Positions 18,454-61,121 of a stretch of 64,000 nucleotides of DNA are shown one piece after another (the stretch's first letter is position 1; the number at the start of each line of letters is the position of its first letter). Source of the stretch: Candidatus Latescibacterota bacterium (lineage in GTDB: Bacteria > Latescibacterota > UBA2968 > UBA8231); assembly GCA_965223905.1 (NCBI GenBank), contig CBDCXV010000002.1, positions 96,001 through 160,000 of the forward strand. Direction: 5' to 3'. The translations under genes were made by a program, and so were the position numbers. The notes below the pieces were generated by a model. That model made no database searches. It was given only the letters and a program-made list of their open reading frames with translations, and was not told the origin of the DNA.

Positions 18454-19254
18454 ATGGATCCTTTGAGGAAAGCACATAGTCGTGATCCGGTCGTGACCGT
18501 GGAAGGGCTGACTTTCAGCTACGGGGGCAGGCAGGTCCTGCACGGGATATCGTTCGCTCTGGAAAGAGGGGAGGTCGTCGGTCTACTGGGCCCGAACGGC
18601 GCCGGTAAGAGCACGACCATCAAGGTCCTGACCGGCATCCTTCCACCAGGCGGAGGGTCGGTTCGCGTGGCTGGCTGTTCCATGCCGACCGAGGCGATCG
18701 AAGCCAAAAAACGGATCGGATACGTACCCGAAGCCGCCGCCCTGTTTGAAAGCCTGTCGGGACAGGAGTTCCTGGAGCTCATGGGCCGCCTTCAGGAAGT
18801 CCCCGAAGAGGTTCTTCAGTCGCGAATTGGCCGATTCCTCAAGCAGTTTGACCTCGCCAACGACCGCCTGCGTCGTCTGGATGGGTACTCGAAGGGCATG
18901 CGCCAGAAGGTGCTCCTCAGCGCGGCCCTCCTTCACAATCCCGACGTGGTGATGCTCGACGAGCCCCTCTCGGGTCTGGACGTCAACACCGGGATCATGG
19001 TCCGGGACCTGATCGCCGCCCTGGCCGCGGAAGGCAAGACTATTCTCTACAGCTCACACGTCCTCGACGTGGTCGAGCGCGTGTGTGACCGCGCCCTGGT
19101 CATCCACGAAGGCCGTCTCATCGCGGACGGATCGCTGGAATCGCTGAAGAGTGCCACCGAGAGGGGCAGTCTCGAAGACGTCTTTCGGCAACTGACTCAT
19201 ACGGACGAAACGGTGAGTGGTGTTTCTGAAATCATAGAAGGTCTGCGGTCGTGA
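18454..19254 (+). CDS. ABC transporter ATP-binding protein
   Basis: Walker A GPNGAGKST, signature YSKGMRQK, Walker B MLDEP and H-loop SSH. Confidence 0.92.
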   Translation: MDPLRKAHSRDPVVTVEGLTFSYGGRQVLHGISFALERGEVVGLLGPNGAGKSTTIKVLTGILPPGGGSVRVAGCSMPTEAIEAKKRIGYVPEAAALFESLSGQEFLELMGRLQEVPEEVLQSRIGRFLKQFDLANDRLRRLDGYSKGMRQKVLLSAALLHNPDVVMLDEPLSGLDVNTGIMVRDLIAALAAEGKTILYSSHVLDVVERVCDRALVIHEGRLIADGSLESLKSATERGSLEDVFRQLTHTDETVSGVSEIIEGLRS

Positions 19255-20984
19255 GGGCTCGTCGTTCCAATCGAAGGTCAGCGGCCCTGGGGAGCCTTCA
19301 TTCCATCGCCAGGCGGTTCTTCCGCGGAACGGGGTTTGCCCGGCAGCTCGAACGGTGCGGGATCGATCCCCACCGATACTGGATCCTCGTCGATCTCTTC
19401 GGGACGCTCAGCAAACGGCAGGAAGTTCTCCGGATGGGCAGTCACGACACCATGCGTTTCTTTGCGATCGTCTGGTTCATTGGATCGAGCTGCATCAGCC
19501 TGTTGATGGCCTACTTCGGTGTTTCTCCTGGAATTTACCTGCTCGTTTTTGTCGGGCTGACCGTTTTTCAGCTCAGCCTGCTCTTAATCTCCGAGGTCGC
19601 AGAAACCCTGGTGAACCCGGTCGAGGGACTGATTCTGGCGCACCAGCCGGTGAACGGGGCCACTTGGTCGGGCGCAAAGCTGACCCACCTGATAAAGGTC
19701 GTCCTCTATGTCGTGGCGGGAGTGAATGGGGTGCCGGCGCTCGTCGGCTTTTTCCTTCCTCATACCAGCAGGTTCCTTTCCCTGGTCTACCCTGCCATGC
19801 ACTTTCTGATCGCTCTGGGGGTCGGGCTGGTCGTCGCGTTACTCTGCTGCAGCCTGTTCGGGTGGCTGATTCGCTTCATTCCCGTCCGGCGTCTCAAGGC
19901 GGCCGCGGCCATGGCTCAGGCCGTCCCCATGTTTTTCGCGTTCGGATTCAATCTTCTGAACCTGTTGGGAAAGGACCTTGTGAGTTGGCCAGCCTGGATC
20001 GACCTGCCCGAAGGATGGCTCGCCGTCGGCGAGGCCGTGCCGGGCGGGTTTCCGGTGATGCTGGGCGTCGCGGCCATTTCCGTCGCGATCGCTGGTACCG
20101 TATTCGGACTGCGGGCGCTTTCGAGTAATCATCTGATCCGTGTTTCGGGTCTGATGCACTCAGGTTCCAGGGTGCGGCGGCTGGAGTGGAGACGATGGAA
20201 GGTCAGTCCCTGGATTGCGAGGTTTACCGGCGGTCAAGCGAGCCGCGCCGGGTTTGCGTATCTGTGCCCCATGATGGTCCGGGACTGGCAGTTTCGGAAA
20301 AACATGGCCATGAGCATTCCGATCATACTCTTTGGCTCCCTTTATATGCTCGTCTACGGACTGGAGGTCTCTCCGTTTGCTCCAGGCTTTGCCTACACGC
20401 ACTTCCTCCCCCACTTGGCCGGATGGACGGTTCTCATTACGTGCCTGTGCCTGGCGTATGGCAATGACTACAAGGGCATCTGGTCGTTTTCCATCGTGCC
20501 GGATTCTTCCTTCCGTCCGTTTGCGAGGGGAATTCATGCGGCGCTCTGGCTCATGCTTGTCATCGTTCCCAACCTCTTCTGGCTGTTCCTGCTGGCGTGG
20601 TCCTGGGGCGTGAGGGATACCGTCTTATTCATCGCCTACAGCACGGCCGTTACGTCCCTGTACCTTGCAGTGGGCTTGAGGCTGATCGACGGTGTTCCCT
20701 TCGGTAAACAAAGGCCGCCGGAGCGAGGCGTGGTTACGCTCGAAATGATGTTTGGCTACCTCATCGTTATAAGTATCGCGATCGGGATCCAGTACGTTTT
20801 CTTCCGTTCGGCTGTTGCGGTCGCGGCCCTGACTGTAGTCGTGGGTCTGGGGACGTATTTCCTCACAAGAGCGTCACTTGCCAGGTTCGAATCCCGTATC
20901 TGGTTCCACCTGAACCCCGGCGCTTCGAAATCCAGGTTCCACTCATTACTTCGCCGTAGCACGGTGCCGTCGACCCTGCTTTGA
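19251..20984 (+). CDS. Multi-pass membrane protein, putative ABC exporter permease
   Basis: GTGA overlap with the ATPase gene and many hydrophobic segments. Confidence 0.75.
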   Translation: MRARRSNRRSAALGSLHSIARRFFRGTGFARQLERCGIDPHRYWILVDLFGTLSKRQEVLRMGSHDTMRFFAIVWFIGSSCISLLMAYFGVSPGIYLLVFVGLTVFQLSLLLISEVAETLVNPVEGLILAHQPVNGATWSGAKLTHLIKVVLYVVAGVNGVPALVGFFLPHTSRFLSLVYPAMHFLIALGVGLVVALLCCSLFGWLIRFIPVRRLKAAAAMAQAVPMFFAFGFNLLNLLGKDLVSWPAWIDLPEGWLAVGEAVPGGFPVMLGVAAISVAIAGTVFGLRALSSNHLIRVSGLMHSGSRVRRLEWRRWKVSPWIARFTGGQASRAGFAYLCPMMVRDWQFRKNMAMSIPIILFGSLYMLVYGLEVSPFAPGFAYTHFLPHLAGWTVLITCLCLAYGNDYKGIWSFSIVPDSSFRPFARGIHAALWLMLVIVPNLFWLFLLAWSWGVRDTVLFIAYSTAVTSLYLAVGLRLIDGVPFGKQRPPERGVVTLEMMFGYLIVISIAIGIQYVFFRSAVAVAALTVVVGLGTYFLTRASLARFESRIWFHLNPGASKSRFHSLLRRSTVPSTLL

Positions 20985-21094
20985 TTTTTCGATCTGGAGC
21001 CCGTGGAGCCCTCGGAAGGCTGCGGAAAACCATGGCCCGGCAGACACCTTGCCGCACAAGAACCCGCCGGCACGGCCGGCGCGAAAGGAGCCGG

Positions 21095-51918: not shown

Positions 51919-52971
51919 CTATTTGCGCGCCGTCCGCGACCGCTTCACCGCCACGACCTCGGCGAGGATGCTGAGGGCGATTTCCGCCGGGGTCTTGGCG
52001 CCGATGTCGAGCCCTATGGGCCCCTTGATGCGGTCGATCTCCGCCTCGGCGAACCCCGCCTCCTGCAATCGCGCCTTGCGTCTGGCGTGGGACTTGCGCC
52101 CCCCCAGCGCACCGATGTAGGCGACCGGCGCCTTGAGGAAACGGTGCAGGGCCTCGTCGTCGATCTTGGGATCGTGCGTCAGAACCGCGCAGTAGCAGTC
52201 CTCGTTGAGATCCCAGCCGTCCAGCAGATCGCCGGGCCATTTCGCCAACAGCTGAGACGGCTGCACGGGAAACCGCTCCGGCGTCGCGAACACCTCGCGC
52301 GGGTCGATGACCACGGTTTCGAAATCGATCAGCGCCGCGTACTGAACCAGGGGGAGGGTGATATGTCCGGCGCCGATCAGGAGCAGCTGGTCGCGCCGCG
52401 GGAACACCTGGGCGAAGACCGCCTCTCCAGCGACCTCGACGACGCGGCTCTCGCGGGTGGCGTACGCCTCGAGCCCGGAGGCCACTCCGGTTTCGGTCGC
52501 CGCGCCCCATGACCCGGTCACCTCTCCTTCCGGGGTGACCAGCAGGTGCGGGGGAGCCTCCCCCGGCCCCAGGCGGGTCAGCAGGACCGCCGGCCGGTTC
52601 CCCTCCACCCGTTCCCGGAGCTTTCTCCAGACCGCGGCGCTGCCCTCACCATCTGCCTGCGGCAGGTGCCGTTCGACCAGCACCGACACCTCGCCCCCGC
52701 AGGACAGCCCGACCGACCAGGCGGTCTCGTCGTCGACGCCGTAGGTCAGCTTTTTCGGGGCTCCCGTGGCCAGGACCTGTCCCGCCTCTTCGATGACGGA
52801 CCCCTCGATGCACCCCCCGCTGACCGAGCCGGCCACTTTCATCGCCGCGTCGACGATCATCGCCGACCCCACGCCGCGGGGAGAGGATCCCCAGGTCTCC
52901 ACCACGCGCGCCAGGGCGAACGGTCTCGCGCTCGCGTCCCACTCGACCAGATCGTTCCAGATATCCCGCAT
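51919..52971 (-). CDS. xdhC: XdhC/CoxI family Moco-insertion chaperone
   Basis: GSVSGGCIE, GLSCGG, LTHDPKID, YIGALG and PIGLDIGAKTPAEIALSI. Confidence 0.9.
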   Translation of the reverse strand: MRDIWNDLVEWDASARPFALARVVETWGSSPRGVGSAMIVDAAMKVAGSVSGGCIEGSVIEEAGQVLATGAPKKLTYGVDDETAWSVGLSCGGEVSVLVERHLPQADGEGSAAVWRKLRERVEGNRPAVLLTRLGPGEAPPHLLVTPEGEVTGSWGAATETGVASGLEAYATRESRVVEVAGEAVFAQVFPRRDQLLLIGAGHITLPLVQYAALIDFETVVIDPREVFATPERFPVQPSQLLAKWPGDLLDGWDLNEDCYCAVLTHDPKIDDEALHRFLKAPVAYIGALGGRKSHARRKARLQEAGFAEAEIDRIKGPIGLDIGAKTPAEIALSILAEVVAVKRSRTARK

Positions 52972-53037
52972 CCTATGCTCCCACCTTGATTTATGCCATG
53001 TCCGGAAGGCCTGGGAATATACGCCCCGCAGCACCGA

Positions 53038-53069
53038 TTGACAGCCCCGGACAACCTTATATATATAGT
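53038..53069 (+). promoter_or_regulatory. Candidate sigma70 promoter for the coxG-S-L-M genes
   Basis: TTGACA at 53038-43 followed 16-18 nt later by a TATATA tract, in the divergent xdhC/coxG gap. Confidence 0.5.
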
Positions 53070-53126
53070 AGCCCCCCTCGCCGCCGCGGACCGGTCCCGG
53101 CGGCACTTCTCAAGCGAGAAAACGGA

Positions 53127-53561
53127 TTGAATTTCGAAGGCACCCACAAGCTCCAGACCGACGCGGAATCGGCCTGGAACCTGCTCAACGATCCCGAAGT
53201 GCTGAGCCGCTGCACTCCCGGGGTGGTGAAGCTGATTTCGATAGAAGGCGAAAAATACGAGGCCGTCTTCGACATCAAGCTCGGCCCGATAAACAGCGGC
53301 TTCGAAGGCACCATCGAGGTCACCGACAAGGTGGCCCCGCAGAGCTATCGCCTGGTCGTCGAGGTCGACGGCAGGATCGGCACCGTAACTGCCGAGGGCT
53401 CCTTCGACATCAAGCCGGACGGCGACGCCTCGGTCGTATCGTTCGTCGGAAAGGGCCGCATGACCGGCGTGCTCGCACGCCTGGGACAGCGCGTCATGTC
53501 CGGTGTCGCGAGGTTGTTCACGGCGCAGTTCTTCCAGGCTCTCGAAAAGGAAATTGCCTGA
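53127..53561 (+). CDS. coxG: CoxG/SRPBCC family protein
   Basis: [16 protein letters not shown]...[15 protein letters not shown]...FF. The TTG start is inferred. Confidence 0.85.
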
Positions 53562-53610
53562 TACTCACACCGCTCCGGTTGGCTCCGGGGCGCCGACAGG
53601 AGGTTCACCT

Positions 53611-54072
53611 ATGGCGGTACCGATCGAGGTAACCGTAAACGGGCAGACTCACCAGCACGAGGTCGAGCCGCGCACCCTGCTCGTCAGCTACCTGCGCGAG
53701 ACCCTCGCGCTCACCGGGACCCACGTCGGCTGCGACACGAGCAGCTGCGGGGCCTGCACCATCGTCGTCGACGGCCAGGCCGTGAAGTCCTGCACCATGC
53801 TCGCCGCCCAGGCCGACGGCAGAGAGATCACGACGATCGAAGGGCTCGCCACGAATGGCGAGCTGCACCCGATACAGCAGGGGTTCCACGAGGAGCACGG
53901 CCTGCAGTGCGGCTTCTGCACCCCCGGCATGATCATGACGGCCTGGCAGATTCTCGAGGACAACCCGAGCCCCTCCGACGAGGAGATCCGGCACGGCCTC
54001 GAGGGCAACTTCTGCCGCTGCACGGGGTACGACAACATCGTCCGCGCGGTGCAGCACGCCGCCGCGAGCTAG
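53611..54072 (+). CDS. coxS: Molybdoenzyme 2Fe-2S small subunit
   Basis: [18 protein letters not shown] and CRCTGY, with RBS ggagg. Confidence 0.93.
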
Positions 54073-54091
54073 ACCCGGATCGACACTTTTC

Positions 54092-55246
54092 ATGGCCACG
54101 TACCTTCTCACGTGGAATCCGAAGCGAACCTCATGGGACGACCCAGAGGACGGCCTCGAAGCACTCGTTGAGGATTTCCATTACGGCGAGCGCCCCATCA
54201 CCGACTGGAGTTGTGGGAACACCAAACGCATTGAGGAAGGGGGTCGCGTATGGCACCTACGGCAAGGAGAAGACCCGGGCGGGCTATTCGCCTGGGGAAC
54301 TGTCGTCACTCCGACTTGGGAAGAACAGCACTGGGAAGATCCAACCAAGACCTCTCAATATATAGAATACCAAATGGACTGGATCGTGGATCCGGACACC
54401 GATCCCGATCAGATCATACCGCGTGCACGGCTGGATGATCCGCCGTTTAATTCCGTGCACTGGGACACACAACGCTCTGGAATCCACATTCCCGATGATG
54501 TTGCGAGCGCACTCCAGCAGGAATTGCCACGATGGTCAAGGCTGGTCCAGCTTGACCTCGCAACACCGGACGGCGACGTGGCCGGCAGTTACACAATTTC
54601 TGTCCCCGCCGCCGAGGAAGAGCGCCTCCGCGCAGAACTAGACACCCACCCGGAAGCGGAATACGGGGTACTCGACGGCTACGCCGACCACCTCGGCTTC
54701 GATCTCGATACGGAAGACTGGGACGGCTGGACGTGGCGGCCGCGGCAGATGACCGAAAACCTGGAAGCCAACGGCCAGGAGGGAAATGAACTGCAGGAGT
54801 CAGGGCAGGCGCAGAAAAGCCAAACAATCGAAGTGGGTAAGGAAGGTTCCACTCAGTTCAAAGAAAACCAAGAGACTTGCTTCGAGAATGCACCACAGAC
54901 TGTTGTTAAACCGCTACCTGTTCCCAAGGCACCCCGTACCAAAATAGCACCCAAGCAACAACTACCAGAGCCCACAGGGCAGGGTCTGAAAGCTCTACAC
55001 ATAGCTGGCAAGGCTACATGGTGGATGATCACCGCTACAGTCTACACGCTCAAAGCACTGCTTCAGGCTACATGGTGGATGATCCGAATGATGTGGAGGG
55101 TGTTGTGTAAAATAGCGTGGTGGACGTTTTCGGTGACTTGTTGGGCGATTGGTATCGCCTCCGTGTTGTTCTTTTTCGTAATGTGGGTTGCCAGTAAACT
55201 CTTCGATAAAGTCATTGAGGTGGGAACGCCAAAGAAGATGGAGTGA
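54092..55246 (+). CDS. Hypothetical protein: N-terminal EVE/PUA-like domain plus C-terminal Trp-rich transmembrane region
   Basis: TYLLTWNPKR...WSCGNTKRI...QRSGIHIP at the N-terminus, an AT-richer 3' half and a hydrophobic C-terminus. Confidence 0.65.
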   Translation: MATYLLTWNPKRTSWDDPEDGLEALVEDFHYGERPITDWSCGNTKRIEEGGRVWHLRQGEDPGGLFAWGTVVTPTWEEQHWEDPTKTSQYIEYQMDWIVDPDTDPDQIIPRARLDDPPFNSVHWDTQRSGIHIPDDVASALQQELPRWSRLVQLDLATPDGDVAGSYTISVPAAEEERLRAELDTHPEAEYGVLDGYADHLGFDLDTEDWDGWTWRPRQMTENLEANGQEGNELQESGQAQKSQTIEVGKEGSTQFKENQETCFENAPQTVVKPLPVPKAPRTKIAPKQQLPEPTGQGLKALHIAGKATWWMITATVYTLKALLQATWWMIRMMWRVLCKIAWWTFSVTCWAIGIASVLFFFVMWVASKLFDKVIEVGTPKKME

Positions 55247-55323
55247 CCGAAGCAGGCGCTACGGGGGACAGCCTCGGGCCAACAGAGAGAACGAACGATG
55301 AAAGAGGGAAAGGAGATATAGCC

Positions 55324-57690
55324 ATGAGCGTACTCGGACAATCCGTAAAGCGCGTGGAAGACTACAAGTTCCTCACCGGGAAGGGGCGCTACACCGACGA
55401 CATCGTCCTTCCGCGCATGACCTTCGCCTCGGTGGTGCGGTCTCCGCACGCGCACGCGAACATCAGGGGGATCGACTCCTCGGAAGCGGCCAAAGCTGAC
55501 GGCGTCGTCGCCGTCCTCAACGGCGAGGAGATGGCCGCGGACGGCATCGGCGGGCTGCCCGCCGGCTGGCAGGTCGACTTCAAGAACGGCGACACCATGA
55601 AGGAGCCGCCGCATCCGCCGCTGGCGGTCGGCAAGGTGCGCCACGTCGGAGACTCGGTCGCCGTCGTCGTCGCCGAAACCCGCGAGCAGGCCAGGGACGC
55701 CGCCGAGCTGGTCAAGGTCGACTACGAGGTCCTCGACGCCGTCGTCGACGTCGTCGCAGCCCAGGAAGAGGGGGCTCCCCAGCTGCACGAGGACGTCCCC
55801 AACAACGTCCCCTTCGACTGGGAGCTCGGCGACAAGGAGGCGACCGACGCCGCCATCGCCGGCGCCGCCCACGTCACCACCCTCGAATACGCCAACCAGC
55901 GCCTGATCCCCAACGCCATCGAGCCGCGCTGCGCCATCGGCGACTACGACGGCGCCCGCGACCACTACACCCTCTACACCTCCTCCCAGAACCCGCACGT
56001 CATACGGCTGCTGATGTCGGCCTTCGTGATGGGCCTCCCGGAGCACAAGGTGCGGGTGGTCTCCCCCGACGTCGGCGGCGGATTCGGCAGCAAGATCTTT
56101 CACTACGCCGAAGAGGTGATCGCCATGTGGACCTCGAAGCGCCTCGGGCGGCCGGTGAAATGGACCGCGGAGCGCAGCGAGAGCTTCCTGACCGACGCCC
56201 ACGGCCGCGACCACGCCACCAAGGCGGAGATGGGTTTCGACGGCGACGGCAACATCCTCGGCCTGCGGGTCAAGACCCACGCCAACATGGGGGCCTACTT
56301 CTCGACCTTCGGCCCCTGCATCCCGACCTACCTCTACGGCACCCTGCTGCAGGGGCTCTACAGGACGCCGGCGATCCACGTCGACGTCACCGCGGCCTTC
56401 ACCAACACGGTTCCCGTCGACGCCCTGCGCGGCGCCGGCCGGCCCGAGGCGACCTACCTGCTCGAGCGGCTGCTCGACCAGGGGGCGCACGAGACCGGCA
56501 GGGATCCGGCCGAGCTGCGGCGGCAGAACTTCATCCCGCCGTTCGACGGCGTCGAACAGCCCGGGTACGAGACCCAGGTGGCGCTGGTCTACGACAGCGG
56601 CAACTACGAAGCCGTCCTCGACAAGGCGCTCGAGAACGCCGGCTACGCCGCCCTGCGCAAGGAGCAGGAAGATGCCCGCGCCGAAGGGCGCCTGATCGGC
56701 ATCGGGTTCTCGACCTACATCGAGGCCTGCGGCATCGCTCCCTCCGCCGTCGTCGGCGCCCTGGGCGCGCGCGCCGGACTCTACGAAAGCGGCACGGTGC
56801 GGGTGCAGCCCACCGGCAAGGTGTCCGTCTACACCGGCAGCCACTCGCACGGCCAGGGGCACGAAACCACCTTCTCGCAGCTCGTCTCCGACAGCCTCGG
56901 CATCCCGATGGAGGACGTCGAGATCGTCCACGGCGACACCGAGCAGGTGCCTTTCGGCATGGGCACCTACGGGTCCCGGTCCCTGGCGGTGGGCGGCATG
57001 GCCATCACCAGGAGCCTGGAGAAGGTCAAGGAGAAGGGGGCGAAGATCGCCGCCCACCTGCTCGAGGCGTCGGAGGAGGACCTCGAGTACGTCGACGCCT
57101 CCTGGAAGGTGAAGGGGACCGACCAGTCGGTCGGTTTCGGCGACGTCGCCCTGACCGCGTACGTGCCGCACAACTACCCCGAGGGGCTCGAGCCCGGTCT
57201 CGAGTTCACCAGCTTCTACGACCCGGCCAACTTCACCTTCCCGTACGGGGCTCACATCGCCGTCGTCGAGGTCTGCCCCTACACCGGCATGGTGCAGCTG
57301 AGGCGCTACATCGCCGTCGACGACGTCGGCAACGTCGTCAACCCGATGATCGTCGACGGGCAGGTCCACGGCGGCATCACCCACGGCGTCGGACAAGCCC
57401 TGCTCGAAGGCGCGGTGTACGACGACAACGGCCAGCTCACCAACGGCTCCTACATGGACTACGCGATGCCGCGCGCCGACGACGTGCCGAGGTTCGAGAC
57501 CGACCGCACCGTGACCCCGTGCCCCCACAACACCCTCGGCGTCAAGGGAGCGGGAGAGACCGGCACCATCGGTTCGACGCCGGCGGTGGTCAACGCGGTG
57601 GTCGACGCCCTCTGGCATCTCGGCGTCCGCGACCTGCAGATGCCCCTTACCCCGCAGACCGTGTGGAAGGCCATGCAGGACGCGGCCTAG
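55324..57690 (+). CDS. coxL: Xanthine dehydrogenase/CODH-family molybdopterin large subunit (form II CoxL-like)
   Basis: [48 protein letters not shown] and GVKGAGE. Confidence 0.9.
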
Positions 57691-59770: not shown

Positions 59771-59890
59771 GGAGTGAAGAGGTTGCCTGTTCTTCAGGAG
59801 GGGGTGAGGAGAGCGAAGGTCATGGAGACGGCCGCTGGAACCCCCTCTCCACTCGCGTCAACAGCACTGCCGTGTATACCAAAGTATACT

Positions 59891-60088
59891 CTAAACGAAA
59901 GCACCCAGAAAACCCTCGAAACTTGCAATATGGCCTGTTTCTTCCAACCTCTTCTTTACCCTCTCGTAGTACCGGTCATGCAAGAGGGGTTTGGAATTAA
60001 CAACCCTGAGCTTCGGATTAACCAGTGGAACCCAATGTTCGTATACTCTTTTCTCTCCATTCCCCTCAACAACCAAATATACATCCAT
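59891..60088 (-). pseudogene. Truncated partner of the AAA ATPase (TOPRIM-like N-terminus)
   Basis: MDVYLVVEGNGEKRVY starts 1 nt after the ATPase stop. Only 65 aa long and AT-rich. Confidence 0.5.
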
Positions 60089-60089
60089 T

Positions 60090-60860
60090 TCAATTAATGC
60101 CGGTGTAGAATGGATCATTGATGAGTTGTACAAAAGCTTTCTGCTTTGACTTACCATATTTTTCTTCAAATTCTGCTCCATCTTTGATGGATACCTTTGA
60201 GCCATTCCTGTGAAAGACTCTCCACGTCTTTACGGGCATGCTGTTAATCAGATAGGGGTGGTGCGTCGTAACCAGGAATTGGATATCTATACCATGAGTA
60301 GCCAAGAATCCGAGTAGCCAAGAATCCTGGAAGAAAATCAATGGCGTTTATTCCGAGGGAGTTTTCGTATTCGTCGATGATGTAAATCGAACCTTTTGGC
60401 AAGGTAAGTATGTCGGCAATGATCAATAAAACTTTCTGCATTCCCGATGAGAGCTCCAGCACTGGAATCTTCCTGTTTACTTTCATTTCCTTTATTAGGA
60501 ATACAGGGACTTGGCCTGGAGGCCTAATTCCCACTTCGCATTCCTTAATTGAAGGAAATACCTGTTCAAAGGTTTCTACCGCCAACTTATACAATTCAGG
60601 GAACTTCTTCTCCAAAAGAAACATTCTGGCACTAAGTGCGGGTTAAAGAAAAGGCATCAGAAGTTCGATTGATCAGATTCTCAAATTCTTCCATCGAACC
60701 CATAGGCTTACGCTTAAGCACTTCCTTTTCAATTTGGTTCTCACCACCATCATATTCCCAAAGATATTCATACTCGTCAGTTTCTACAGTTAACCTCCAA
60801 TGTCCAGAGATAAATGGCTGGCCGCGTACAATAGAGTTCGAAACAAGGTAGCCAGGGTGG
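60090..60860 (-). pseudogene. ABC/AAA_21-type ATPase remnant
   Basis: LSSGMQK, IYIIDEYENSL and LVTTHHPY are spread over different frames, and no Walker A is seen. A 16-bp tandem duplication lies at 60296-60327. AT-rich. Confidence 0.75.
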
Positions 60861-61121
60861 TTCAGCCGGGCAACTTTCCATGAGTCCGGAGTCGACTCCC
60901 GGATTTGTCGGTGTGGATAACGAATCGATTTCACAGCCACGGTGTCGCGAGACGAGATCCGCGATCTGCTGATCGCCCACGGTGCCAGGGCCGAGGAACA
61001 GCTCCCGCACCGCGTAATCGATTGACAAGTGCAGGTGAGGTGAAACTGCCGGCCCGTCAGAAAATCTTCATGGCCATCCCTTCCGGAGCGCCGATCACTC
61101 GTTCAGGAGAAACAGGTTCCC

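Follow-up and report, generated by a model that had tools for sequence, protein, structure and literature searches.

An EVE-domain protein encoded between coxS and coxL in a Candidatus Latescibacterota bacterium, with a predicted membrane tail in place of an HNH nuclease

We have analysed a 64,000-nt stretch of DNA from a Candidatus Latescibacterota bacterium (NCBI GenBank assembly GCA_965223905.1, contig CBDCXV010000002.1, positions 96,001–160,000 of the forward strand; referred to here as the window, in whose numbering all positions are given) and describe an open reading frame (ORF) at 54092..55246 on the + strand which encodes a 384-aa protein and has a coxS-like gene upstream and a coxL-like gene downstream. 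We refer to the genome studied here as G000, to its 384-aa protein as P0001, and to two sister genomes of the same genus as G011 and G012. In P0001 a confidently modelled EVE-fold reader domain is followed by a small middle domain, a long linker and a tail with a predicted transmembrane (TM) helix, and this tail stands where a sister protein encoded at the same site carries an HNH nuclease. Our best explanation, held tentatively and at somewhat less than even confidence, is that P0001 derives from a type IV restriction enzyme, has lost the nuclease, and as a tail-anchored protein acts at the membrane as a reader of modified bases.

The origin of the gene can be followed through three states of one site. 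In the sister species G012 the site is empty, with coxS and coxL only 61 nt apart, and it is this adjacency which indicates that the gene truly splits coxS–coxL. In the other sister, G011, the same place is occupied by a 370-aa gene in which the EVE domain, middle domain and acidic linker lead into an intact HNH domain, on the 3' side of which lies the 3' part of the spacer also found in G012. In G000 the EVE and middle domains are followed by the TM tail and then by a new spacer, and the gene is present in two of the three genomes of the genus. P0001 and the G011 protein are collinear through residue 271 with 70% aa identity and then diverge completely, with the break falling right after FEGARQTV, a motif which in the short forms of the family opens the HNH region (EGA..V.IN.YERN...). 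The replacement spans the stop codon and the spacer, and the sequence becomes similar to that of G011 and G012 again only in the last ~15 nt ahead of the coxL ATG. No credible HNH remnant was found in the six frames of 54700–55400, no relocated HNH was found in the G000 genome (93.6% complete) with the HNH part of G011 as the query, and P0001 has no match to PF01844 or PF13391. A single HNH match at E=0.003 was dismissed, as it overlaps the conserved start of coxL on the minus strand and was obtained with a 701-nt database. As it lacks a C-terminal HNH (beta-beta-alpha-Me) nuclease, P0001 is not a member of the EVE–HNH enzymes though descended from one and, judged from these alignments, it is a direct derivative of the EVE–HNH gene at the same site in which the HNH has been replaced.

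The features of the locus are as follows, all on the + strand.

53611..54072, +: coxS-like [2Fe-2S] small subunit, the upstream host gene (Pfam Fer2_2 8e-35, Fer2 5.2e-08).
54073..54091, +: 19-nt spacer from the coxS stop to the ORF start, containing CGGAT, which also flanks the G011 insert (alignment).
54092..54535, +: EVE-like (PUA superfamily) reader domain, residues 1–148 (AlphaFold2 (AF2), Foldseek, VIA and family residues).
54536..54757, +: small alpha/beta middle domain, residues 149–222 (predicted local distance difference test score (pLDDT) 56–80; otherwise found in the 370-aa HNH forms only).
54758..54904, +: acidic/polar disordered linker, residues 223–271 (pLDDT 32–48; alignment to HNH forms).
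54905..54988, +: Pro-rich segment KPLPVPKAPRTKIAPKQQLPEPTG, residues 272–299, the start of the replacement (homology to HNH forms stops).
54989..55129, +: Trp/Arg/Lys-rich amphipathic juxtamembrane helix, residues 300–346 (pLDDT 74–93, hydrophobic moment).
55130..55207, +: predicted transmembrane helix, residues 347–372 (Kyte-Doolittle).
55208..55246, +: short C-terminal end DKVIEVGTPKKME and stop codon (TPKKME invariant in the three TM forms by alignment).
55247..55320, +: intergenic spacer, also replaced, in which AAGGAG precedes the coxL ATG (alignment with G011 and G012).
55321..57690, +: coxL-like molybdopterin large subunit, the downstream host gene (Pfam MoCoBD_2 3.7e-90, MoCoBD_1 8.6e-78, Ald_Xan_dh_C).

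An earlier note on this DNA, made from the sequence alone, had drawn attention to positions 54073–55323, which comprise the ORF with the 19-nt spacer before it (coxS stop at 54072) and a 74-nt spacer behind it (coxL ATG at 55321). It had described a 384-aa gene foreign to the operon and lying between coxS and coxL, with an EVE/PUA-like N-terminal domain of the kind found ahead of HNH nucleases, no nuclease motif after this reader, and then an acidic stretch and a Trp-rich hydrophobic tail. In all of this our analysis agrees: the ORF interrupts a junction which is empty in G012; it includes the motifs TYLLTWNP, WSCGN and QRSGI; HNH or HNH_2 is found in 50 of 107 aligned homologues; neither a Pfam HNH match nor a six-frame remnant follows the reader; residues 146–225 have a net charge of -13 (residues 1–145 have -18); and the tail (residues 301–384) is 10.7% Trp with a clear hydropathy peak. 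The inserted gene is compositionally foreign to the cox operon, with a GC content of 0.50–0.60 over 54050–55400 compared with 0.64–0.71 in the surroundings, and a third-position GC content (GC3) of 0.61/0.72/0.54/0.57 in four parts of the gene compared with 0.94/0.94/0.89 in coxS/L/M.

The AF2 model of P0001, built with a 107-sequence alignment, has a pLDDT of about 97 (range 88–98) over residues 1–148, and with it Foldseek placed EVE structures on top (2ar1 at 4.7e-06, 2eve at 3.8e-05 and 5j3e, which is THYN1 with 5-methylcytosine (5mC) DNA, at 6.5e-05; TMt 0.58–0.64), with the restriction enzyme VcaM4I (6yex) at 1.1e-03. VIA gave a similar order, with Z scores of 12.9 for 2ar1 (root-mean-square deviation 2.6, 131 aligned), 11.3 for 5j3e (THYN1) and 9.9 for VcaM4I 6yex, followed by YTH and ASCH readers at Z 8–10. 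On the strength of this model we assign residues 1–148 with confidence to an EVE/PUA-fold domain. P0001 itself has no match to Pfam PF01878 (EVE) at E≤0.1 while 39 of the 107 aligned homologues match it at E≤0.01 (best 8.7e-07), and P0001 thus represents a divergent EVE branch that is linked to the family via its relatives. All 15 of the near-invariant family residues are kept, including W8, N9, P10, W39, W124, Q127, S129 and G130, and the reader domain looks intact by sequence. According to the account of VcaM4I in PMC7897488, the EVE domain of that enzyme flips 5mC or 5-hydroxymethylcytosine (5hmC) into a hydrophobic pocket with the pocket residues Y130, W82 and Q128, and the protomers dimerise via their HNH domains. 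Among viral structures the reader is matched best by a phage protein of 308 aa (BFVD A0A8S5TSM2; E 3.6e-09, with 20% identity in 155 columns), which bears the name '(p)ppGpp synthetase, RelA/SpoT family' and may be a reader fused to another effector.

A HMMER search for relatives returned 1488 cluster representatives at E≤0.001, and the stretch ends, lengths and names given here refer to the best 150 of these. Among them all except P0003 and P0005 align only to the N-terminal domain of the query (ends ~99–187), many are ~265 aa long with source names including '5-methylcytosine-specific restriction protein A' and 'HNH endonuclease', and stand-alone EVE proteins (~140–165 aa, no effector) are common. 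Pfam matches among the 107 aligned members were to HNH in 44, HNH_2 in six and EVE in 39, with a few members carrying NOV_C, SRA or PD-(D/E)XK instead. When the family profile was compared with the PDB, the HNH part matched EcoKMcrA 6ghc (7e-09), ScoMcrA 5zmm and TagI 6ghs, and the N-domain matched only 2eve (E 0.82). From these domain contents the family is mostly composed of EVE–HNH proteins, that is McrA-like type IV restriction enzymes. The joining of this sensor fold to other effectors (NOV_C, SRA, PD-(D/E)XK and the phage protein named after RelA/SpoT) fits a modular sensor. No cox genes were found in the available DNA around the EVE–HNH loci L003–L006 of other family genomes.

Behind the reader, no part of the protein is better conserved than the middle domain, with pairwise identities of 0.80–0.85 among the five long forms, HNH forms included; it is absent from the ~265-aa EVE–HNH forms in the alignment and has no match in the ESM Atlas. 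Residues 219–299 were modelled by AF2 as disordered, and the linker is homologous to that of the HNH forms up to ...FE(G/N)A(R/P)QTV, with identities of 0.44–0.62 among the TM forms. The dN/dS ratio (non-synonymous to synonymous substitution) between G000 and G011 over the parts alignable to G011 was 0.26 for the EVE domain, 0.41 for the middle domain and 0.86 for the linker.

Each of the three TM forms has one strong hydrophobic segment at ~345–372 by Kyte-Doolittle hydropathy, with 19-mer maxima of 2.23 in P0001 and 2.38 and 2.01 in the other two. In P0001 and P0004 19-mers above 1.0 occur only at the tail (starts 337–361 in P0001), and P0003 has three extra windows of 1.04–1.07 about 30 residues upstream in the region of the Trp helix. 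The hydrophobic moment is 0.44–0.53 over residues 320–346, with W, R and K on one helix face and R332, R336 and K340 on the cytoplasmic side, and AF2 modelled residues 300–378 as one long helix (pLDDT 74–93). VIA matches to the tail were to generic long helices (Z ~7) and were uninformative. As the N-terminus has neither a signal nor a TM segment and the chain ends 12 residues beyond the TM helix, the protein would be tail-anchored with the rest in the cytoplasm, and from hydropathy alone a tail-anchored membrane protein is the simplest prediction for P0001. Using residues 272–384 as the query, we found no relatives of the tail beyond its own three clusters in an index of 5.8 billion proteins (211–672 aa and 30–210 aa), and none elsewhere in its own genome as DNA or protein, in JGI (Joint Genome Institute) metagenome contigs, in GTDB genome contigs, in phage and plasmid collections (tblastn E≤1) or in the ESM Atlas; among 168 genomes of the phylum the tail occurs in one, which is G000 itself.

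The earlier note had allowed for a chance chimera, in which case the fusion should be absent elsewhere. Instead, it occurs in three 90%-identity clusters with six sequences (P0001, P0002, P0220 and the fragment P0219; P0003; and P0004) from different contigs and sources, and contigs from two other studies join the tail to coxL. One of these (X3) covers 54712–55347 with no differences and another (X5) runs for 1304 nt from coxS to coxL with 29 differences, and this recurrence in clusters and in the contigs of others argues that the fusion is not a chance chimera. In the alignment of the tails of the three TM forms both indels are in frame and 65 of 112 columns are invariant. Identities between the TM forms are 0.69–0.77 in the EVE domain, 0.68–0.82 in the Pro-rich segment, 0.77–0.85 in the Trp helix and 0.36–0.58 in the TM helix, and this pattern is what one sees in a protein under apparent constraint with a putative anchor that can change more freely. 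Of the 11 residues at which P0220 departs from P0001, none lies beyond residue 227, and 228–384 is without a change; as the 11 fall in clusters, possibly recombination tracts, they would not count as independent events.

The EVE part of P0001 is nearest to that of the HNH form P0005 (identity 0.79, compared with 0.69–0.72), and the only supported grouping in the tree is of P0003 with P0004 (97/95); as the position of P0001 is without support, we claim neither a single fusion nor repeated exchange. The inserted gene has a synonymous divergence (dS) of 0.45 between G000 and G011, compared with 0.08–0.22 in the flanking cox genes, which could reflect older alleles exchanged by recombination or a weaker codon constraint in a foreign gene. 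The pentamer CGGAT flanks the G011 insert and occurs once at the empty site, a pattern which fits a small target duplication or microhomology and is too short as proof of either. A search for C5-cytosine methyltransferases (PF00145) found none in the three genomes of the genus, with the control found in nine of 14 genomes, so a loss of the nuclease through 5mC self-methylation is not supported.

We propose that in this genus an EVE–HNH (McrA-like, type IV) gene arrived by horizontal transfer and settled between coxS and coxL, and that in the G000 lineage the segment from the first HNH residues to ~15 nt before the coxL start was replaced by a low-GC piece of DNA. The product would be a tail-anchored inner-membrane protein holding its reader and middle domain in the cytoplasm on a disordered tether of ~75 residues, where the reader would recognise modified bases of incoming phage DNA, the 5mC/5hmC type being the probable one. 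With many copies bound to a single heavily modified DNA molecule the tails would be drawn together, and they might then disturb the membrane (abortive infection) or keep the DNA fastened to it, providing defence without a nuclease. What the sequences show is the architecture, the exchange of the HNH domain, the recurrence of the fusion and the conserved tail; a role in defence, the bound ligand and any action at the membrane, which the earlier note had likewise suggested as a possibility, are inferred. As the dimer interface of VcaM4I-class enzymes is the HNH domain, its loss removes the dimer interface of the family, and the tail may have taken over both association and output. In its strongest form, as a one-polypeptide nuclease-free 'type IV restriction' in which an HNH-to-TM effector swap lets modified phage DNA cluster the tails until the membrane collapses, or pins the DNA at entry, we regard this proposal as possible but doubtful.

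Several observations weigh against a membrane-acting defence protein. With a net charge of -18, the EVE domain of P0001 is more acidic than any other in a sample of 106 (median -3), and although those of the HNH sisters are also acidic (-13 and -12), such acidity is odd for a DNA binder. P0003 starts at about residue 51 and misses the first ~50 EVE residues together with TWNP and WSCGN, and in that lineage the reader may be dispensable or decaying, or the start may have been miscalled. A single TM helix with an amphipathic helix is not by itself a pore, and the tail appears to be an orphan, so there is no independent case of this putative effector; among 217 family proteins a strong hydrophobic segment outside the HNH region is seen only in the TM forms (weaker segments occur in P0121 and P0157). 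None of the families in PADLOC-DB v2 matches the 384-aa protein at E≤1 and the gene lies outside any defence island. The RNA-library contigs X9 and X10 cover coxS and the coxL start, and X10, a 306-nt contig at 54045–54349, bridges the end of coxS into the gene, but it has G011-like upstream variants and DNA carry-over is possible; no RNA contig covers the tail, which is uninformative either way as only contigs were searched.

An alternative that we judge unlikely is that P0001 is a disarmed remnant, in which the HNH was lost, for example because it was costly, unrelated DNA extended the frame, and the whole was kept by its essential operon position and the coxL ribosome-binding site, leaving a tail without function. 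This would account for a tail that is an orphan in every search, of low GC and biased composition and covered by no RNA contig, for the truncated EVE domain of P0003, and for the replacement holding the coxL spacer and AAGGAG, since selection on coxL expression could preserve this DNA. It sits less well with a frame that has stayed open for ~112 codons across three forms diverged to 0.36–0.85, with two in-frame indels and an invariant C-terminus, or with a protein-like pattern in which the Trp helix (0.77–0.85) is conserved above the linker (0.44–0.62). P0220 has no changes in 228–384 compared with 11 upstream, the EVE part is under purifying selection (dN/dS 0.26), and with PF00145 in none of the three genomes of the genus, 5mC self-toxicity is not an evident motive for losing the nuclease. 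P0001 could also be a membrane-tethered reader that does not kill, serving as a DNA trap or entry block, as a shield against co-resident EVE–HNH enzymes or as an adaptor for a partner, to which we again give a low probability. Stand-alone EVE proteins are common among the best 150 of the 1488 representatives, so a reader need not have an enzyme fused to it in order to function; a lone TM helix is typical of anchors and is here the least conserved part of the tail; a long disordered tether lies between reader and anchor; and HNH alleles, TM alleles and empty sites co-occur in samples. However, the conserved Trp/Arg/Lys helix and Pro-rich segment suggest more than an anchor, and the locus has no partner gene, being flanked by the cox genes that also border the empty site. 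More improbable still is a membrane-placed reader of modified RNA (tRNA, rRNA or mRNA) unrelated to phage defence, for which the very acidic domain and a fold matching YTH and ASCH RNA readers nearly as well as EVE–DNA complexes (VIA Z 8.2–9.8) may be cited, along with the account in PMC6765204 that EVE domains were first regarded as RNA-binding. Yet the nearest relatives of P0001 are fused to McrA-type HNH DNA nucleases, and a patchy, foreign gene in two of three genomes of the genus fits defence rather than housekeeping.

The closest known proteins are the EVE–HNH or McrA-like enzymes such as VcaM4I, with which P0001 shares an N-terminal EVE-fold reader and an organisation as a single gene without an adjacent methyltransferase; its nearest sequence relatives carry a McrA-type HNH, and an HNH allele occupies the same site in G011. 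It differs from them in the replacement of the HNH by a membrane tail, from the ~265-aa forms in the addition of a ~75-aa middle domain and a long disordered linker, and from VcaM4I in having a reader that is not detectably related by sequence in a profile search. The stand-alone EVE proteins and THYN1 (2eve, 2ar1 and 5j3e) provide the best structural matches but are soluble and single-domain, and P0001 adds to this fold the middle domain, tether, TM tail and an ancestry as a nuclease fusion. The TM effectors of CBASS (the antiphage signalling system based on cyclic oligonucleotides) join nucleic-acid sensor logic to a membrane effector. A sensor is likewise combined with a membrane effector in the short Argonaute SiAgo and its membrane protein Aga2, as presented in 10.1101/2021.12.09.471704. 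The likeness of P0001 to these systems is in logic only, in that a cytoplasmic sensor of foreign nucleic acid is paired with a membrane effector instead of a nuclease; there is no relation in sequence or fold, and P0001 combines both parts in one polypeptide that has just one TM helix, neither a second messenger nor a partner, and only a putative action on the membrane.

We found no description of an EVE–TM fusion in the main texts of the literature, the supplements of which could list such architectures: 'transmembrane' is used nowhere in the main text of an EVE survey (PMC7641849) or of a PUA–nuclease screen (PMC6765204), and its six uses in PMC11090510 all concern other proteins. If the proposed membrane-acting reader is real, it would couple modification sensing to a quite different output than a nuclease, in parallel with the exchange of effectors seen in CBASS, Thoeris and short Argonautes. 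In the current picture of type IV restriction, a nuclease accompanies the reader. With its empty, HNH and TM states all flanked by one pair of genes in close relatives, the locus amounts to a natural experiment in which matched constructs are comparable, and from sequence the EVE–TM protein is a rare candidate for a novel type of phage defence, with an unusually clean natural comparison. This is also a defence-type gene within a metabolic operon, and island-based discovery would miss such genes.

Annotation of the 384-aa protein by domain databases gave no Pfam match at E≤0.1, HNH included, and no NCBIfam or PHROGs match; a PDB phmmer match to an FKBP construct (0.061) was taken as chance. The host genes on either side are close to those of G011, with 98.7% aa identity for coxS (GC3 0.94) and 98% for coxL (dS 0.084). 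Other neighbours are coxG upstream and coxM downstream (FAD_binding_5, 2.4e-53), with XdhC-like and MobA-like maturation genes nearby on the opposite strand. True form I CO dehydrogenases carry the motif AYXCSFR and form II proteins carry AYRGAGR, and by the coxL motif of the window the 'cox' operon may be that of a form II-like molybdoenzyme.

No Shine-Dalgarno-like run was seen by eye in the 54073..54091 spacer, and a scan of 52900–55500 revealed nothing on the + strand beyond the shuffle expectation, with one promoter-like site on the minus strand and two terminator-like sites compared with 2.1 expected. With no promoter or terminator signal of its own above background, the gene is probably read from the cox operon transcript. 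HNH alleles, TM alleles and empty sites were found together in the same samples. We note that X3 has the coxS stop joined to the coxL start with only GAGGA between them and that other joints skip 54042–55369, and the same communities thus hold several spacer versions, some containing the insert and some lacking it. The RNA libraries behind X9–X13 and X21 are labelled sponge metagenome (shares 0.07–0.21, mainly coxS), and the organism is probably sponge-associated.

Elsewhere in the window, a low-GC island lies on the minus strand at 59890–60940 (0.44 over 60001–61000 compared with ~0.67 around it) with several short adjoining ORFs. One of these, at 60247–60624, matches positions 225–281 of 304 of Pfam AAA_21 ('putative AbiEii toxin' ATPase, 1e-06), and the island looks, by sequence, like a fragmented and foreign defence-type ATPase gene. 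A second stretch of lowered GC (0.58–0.60), at 19001–21000, has a strongly negative AT skew.

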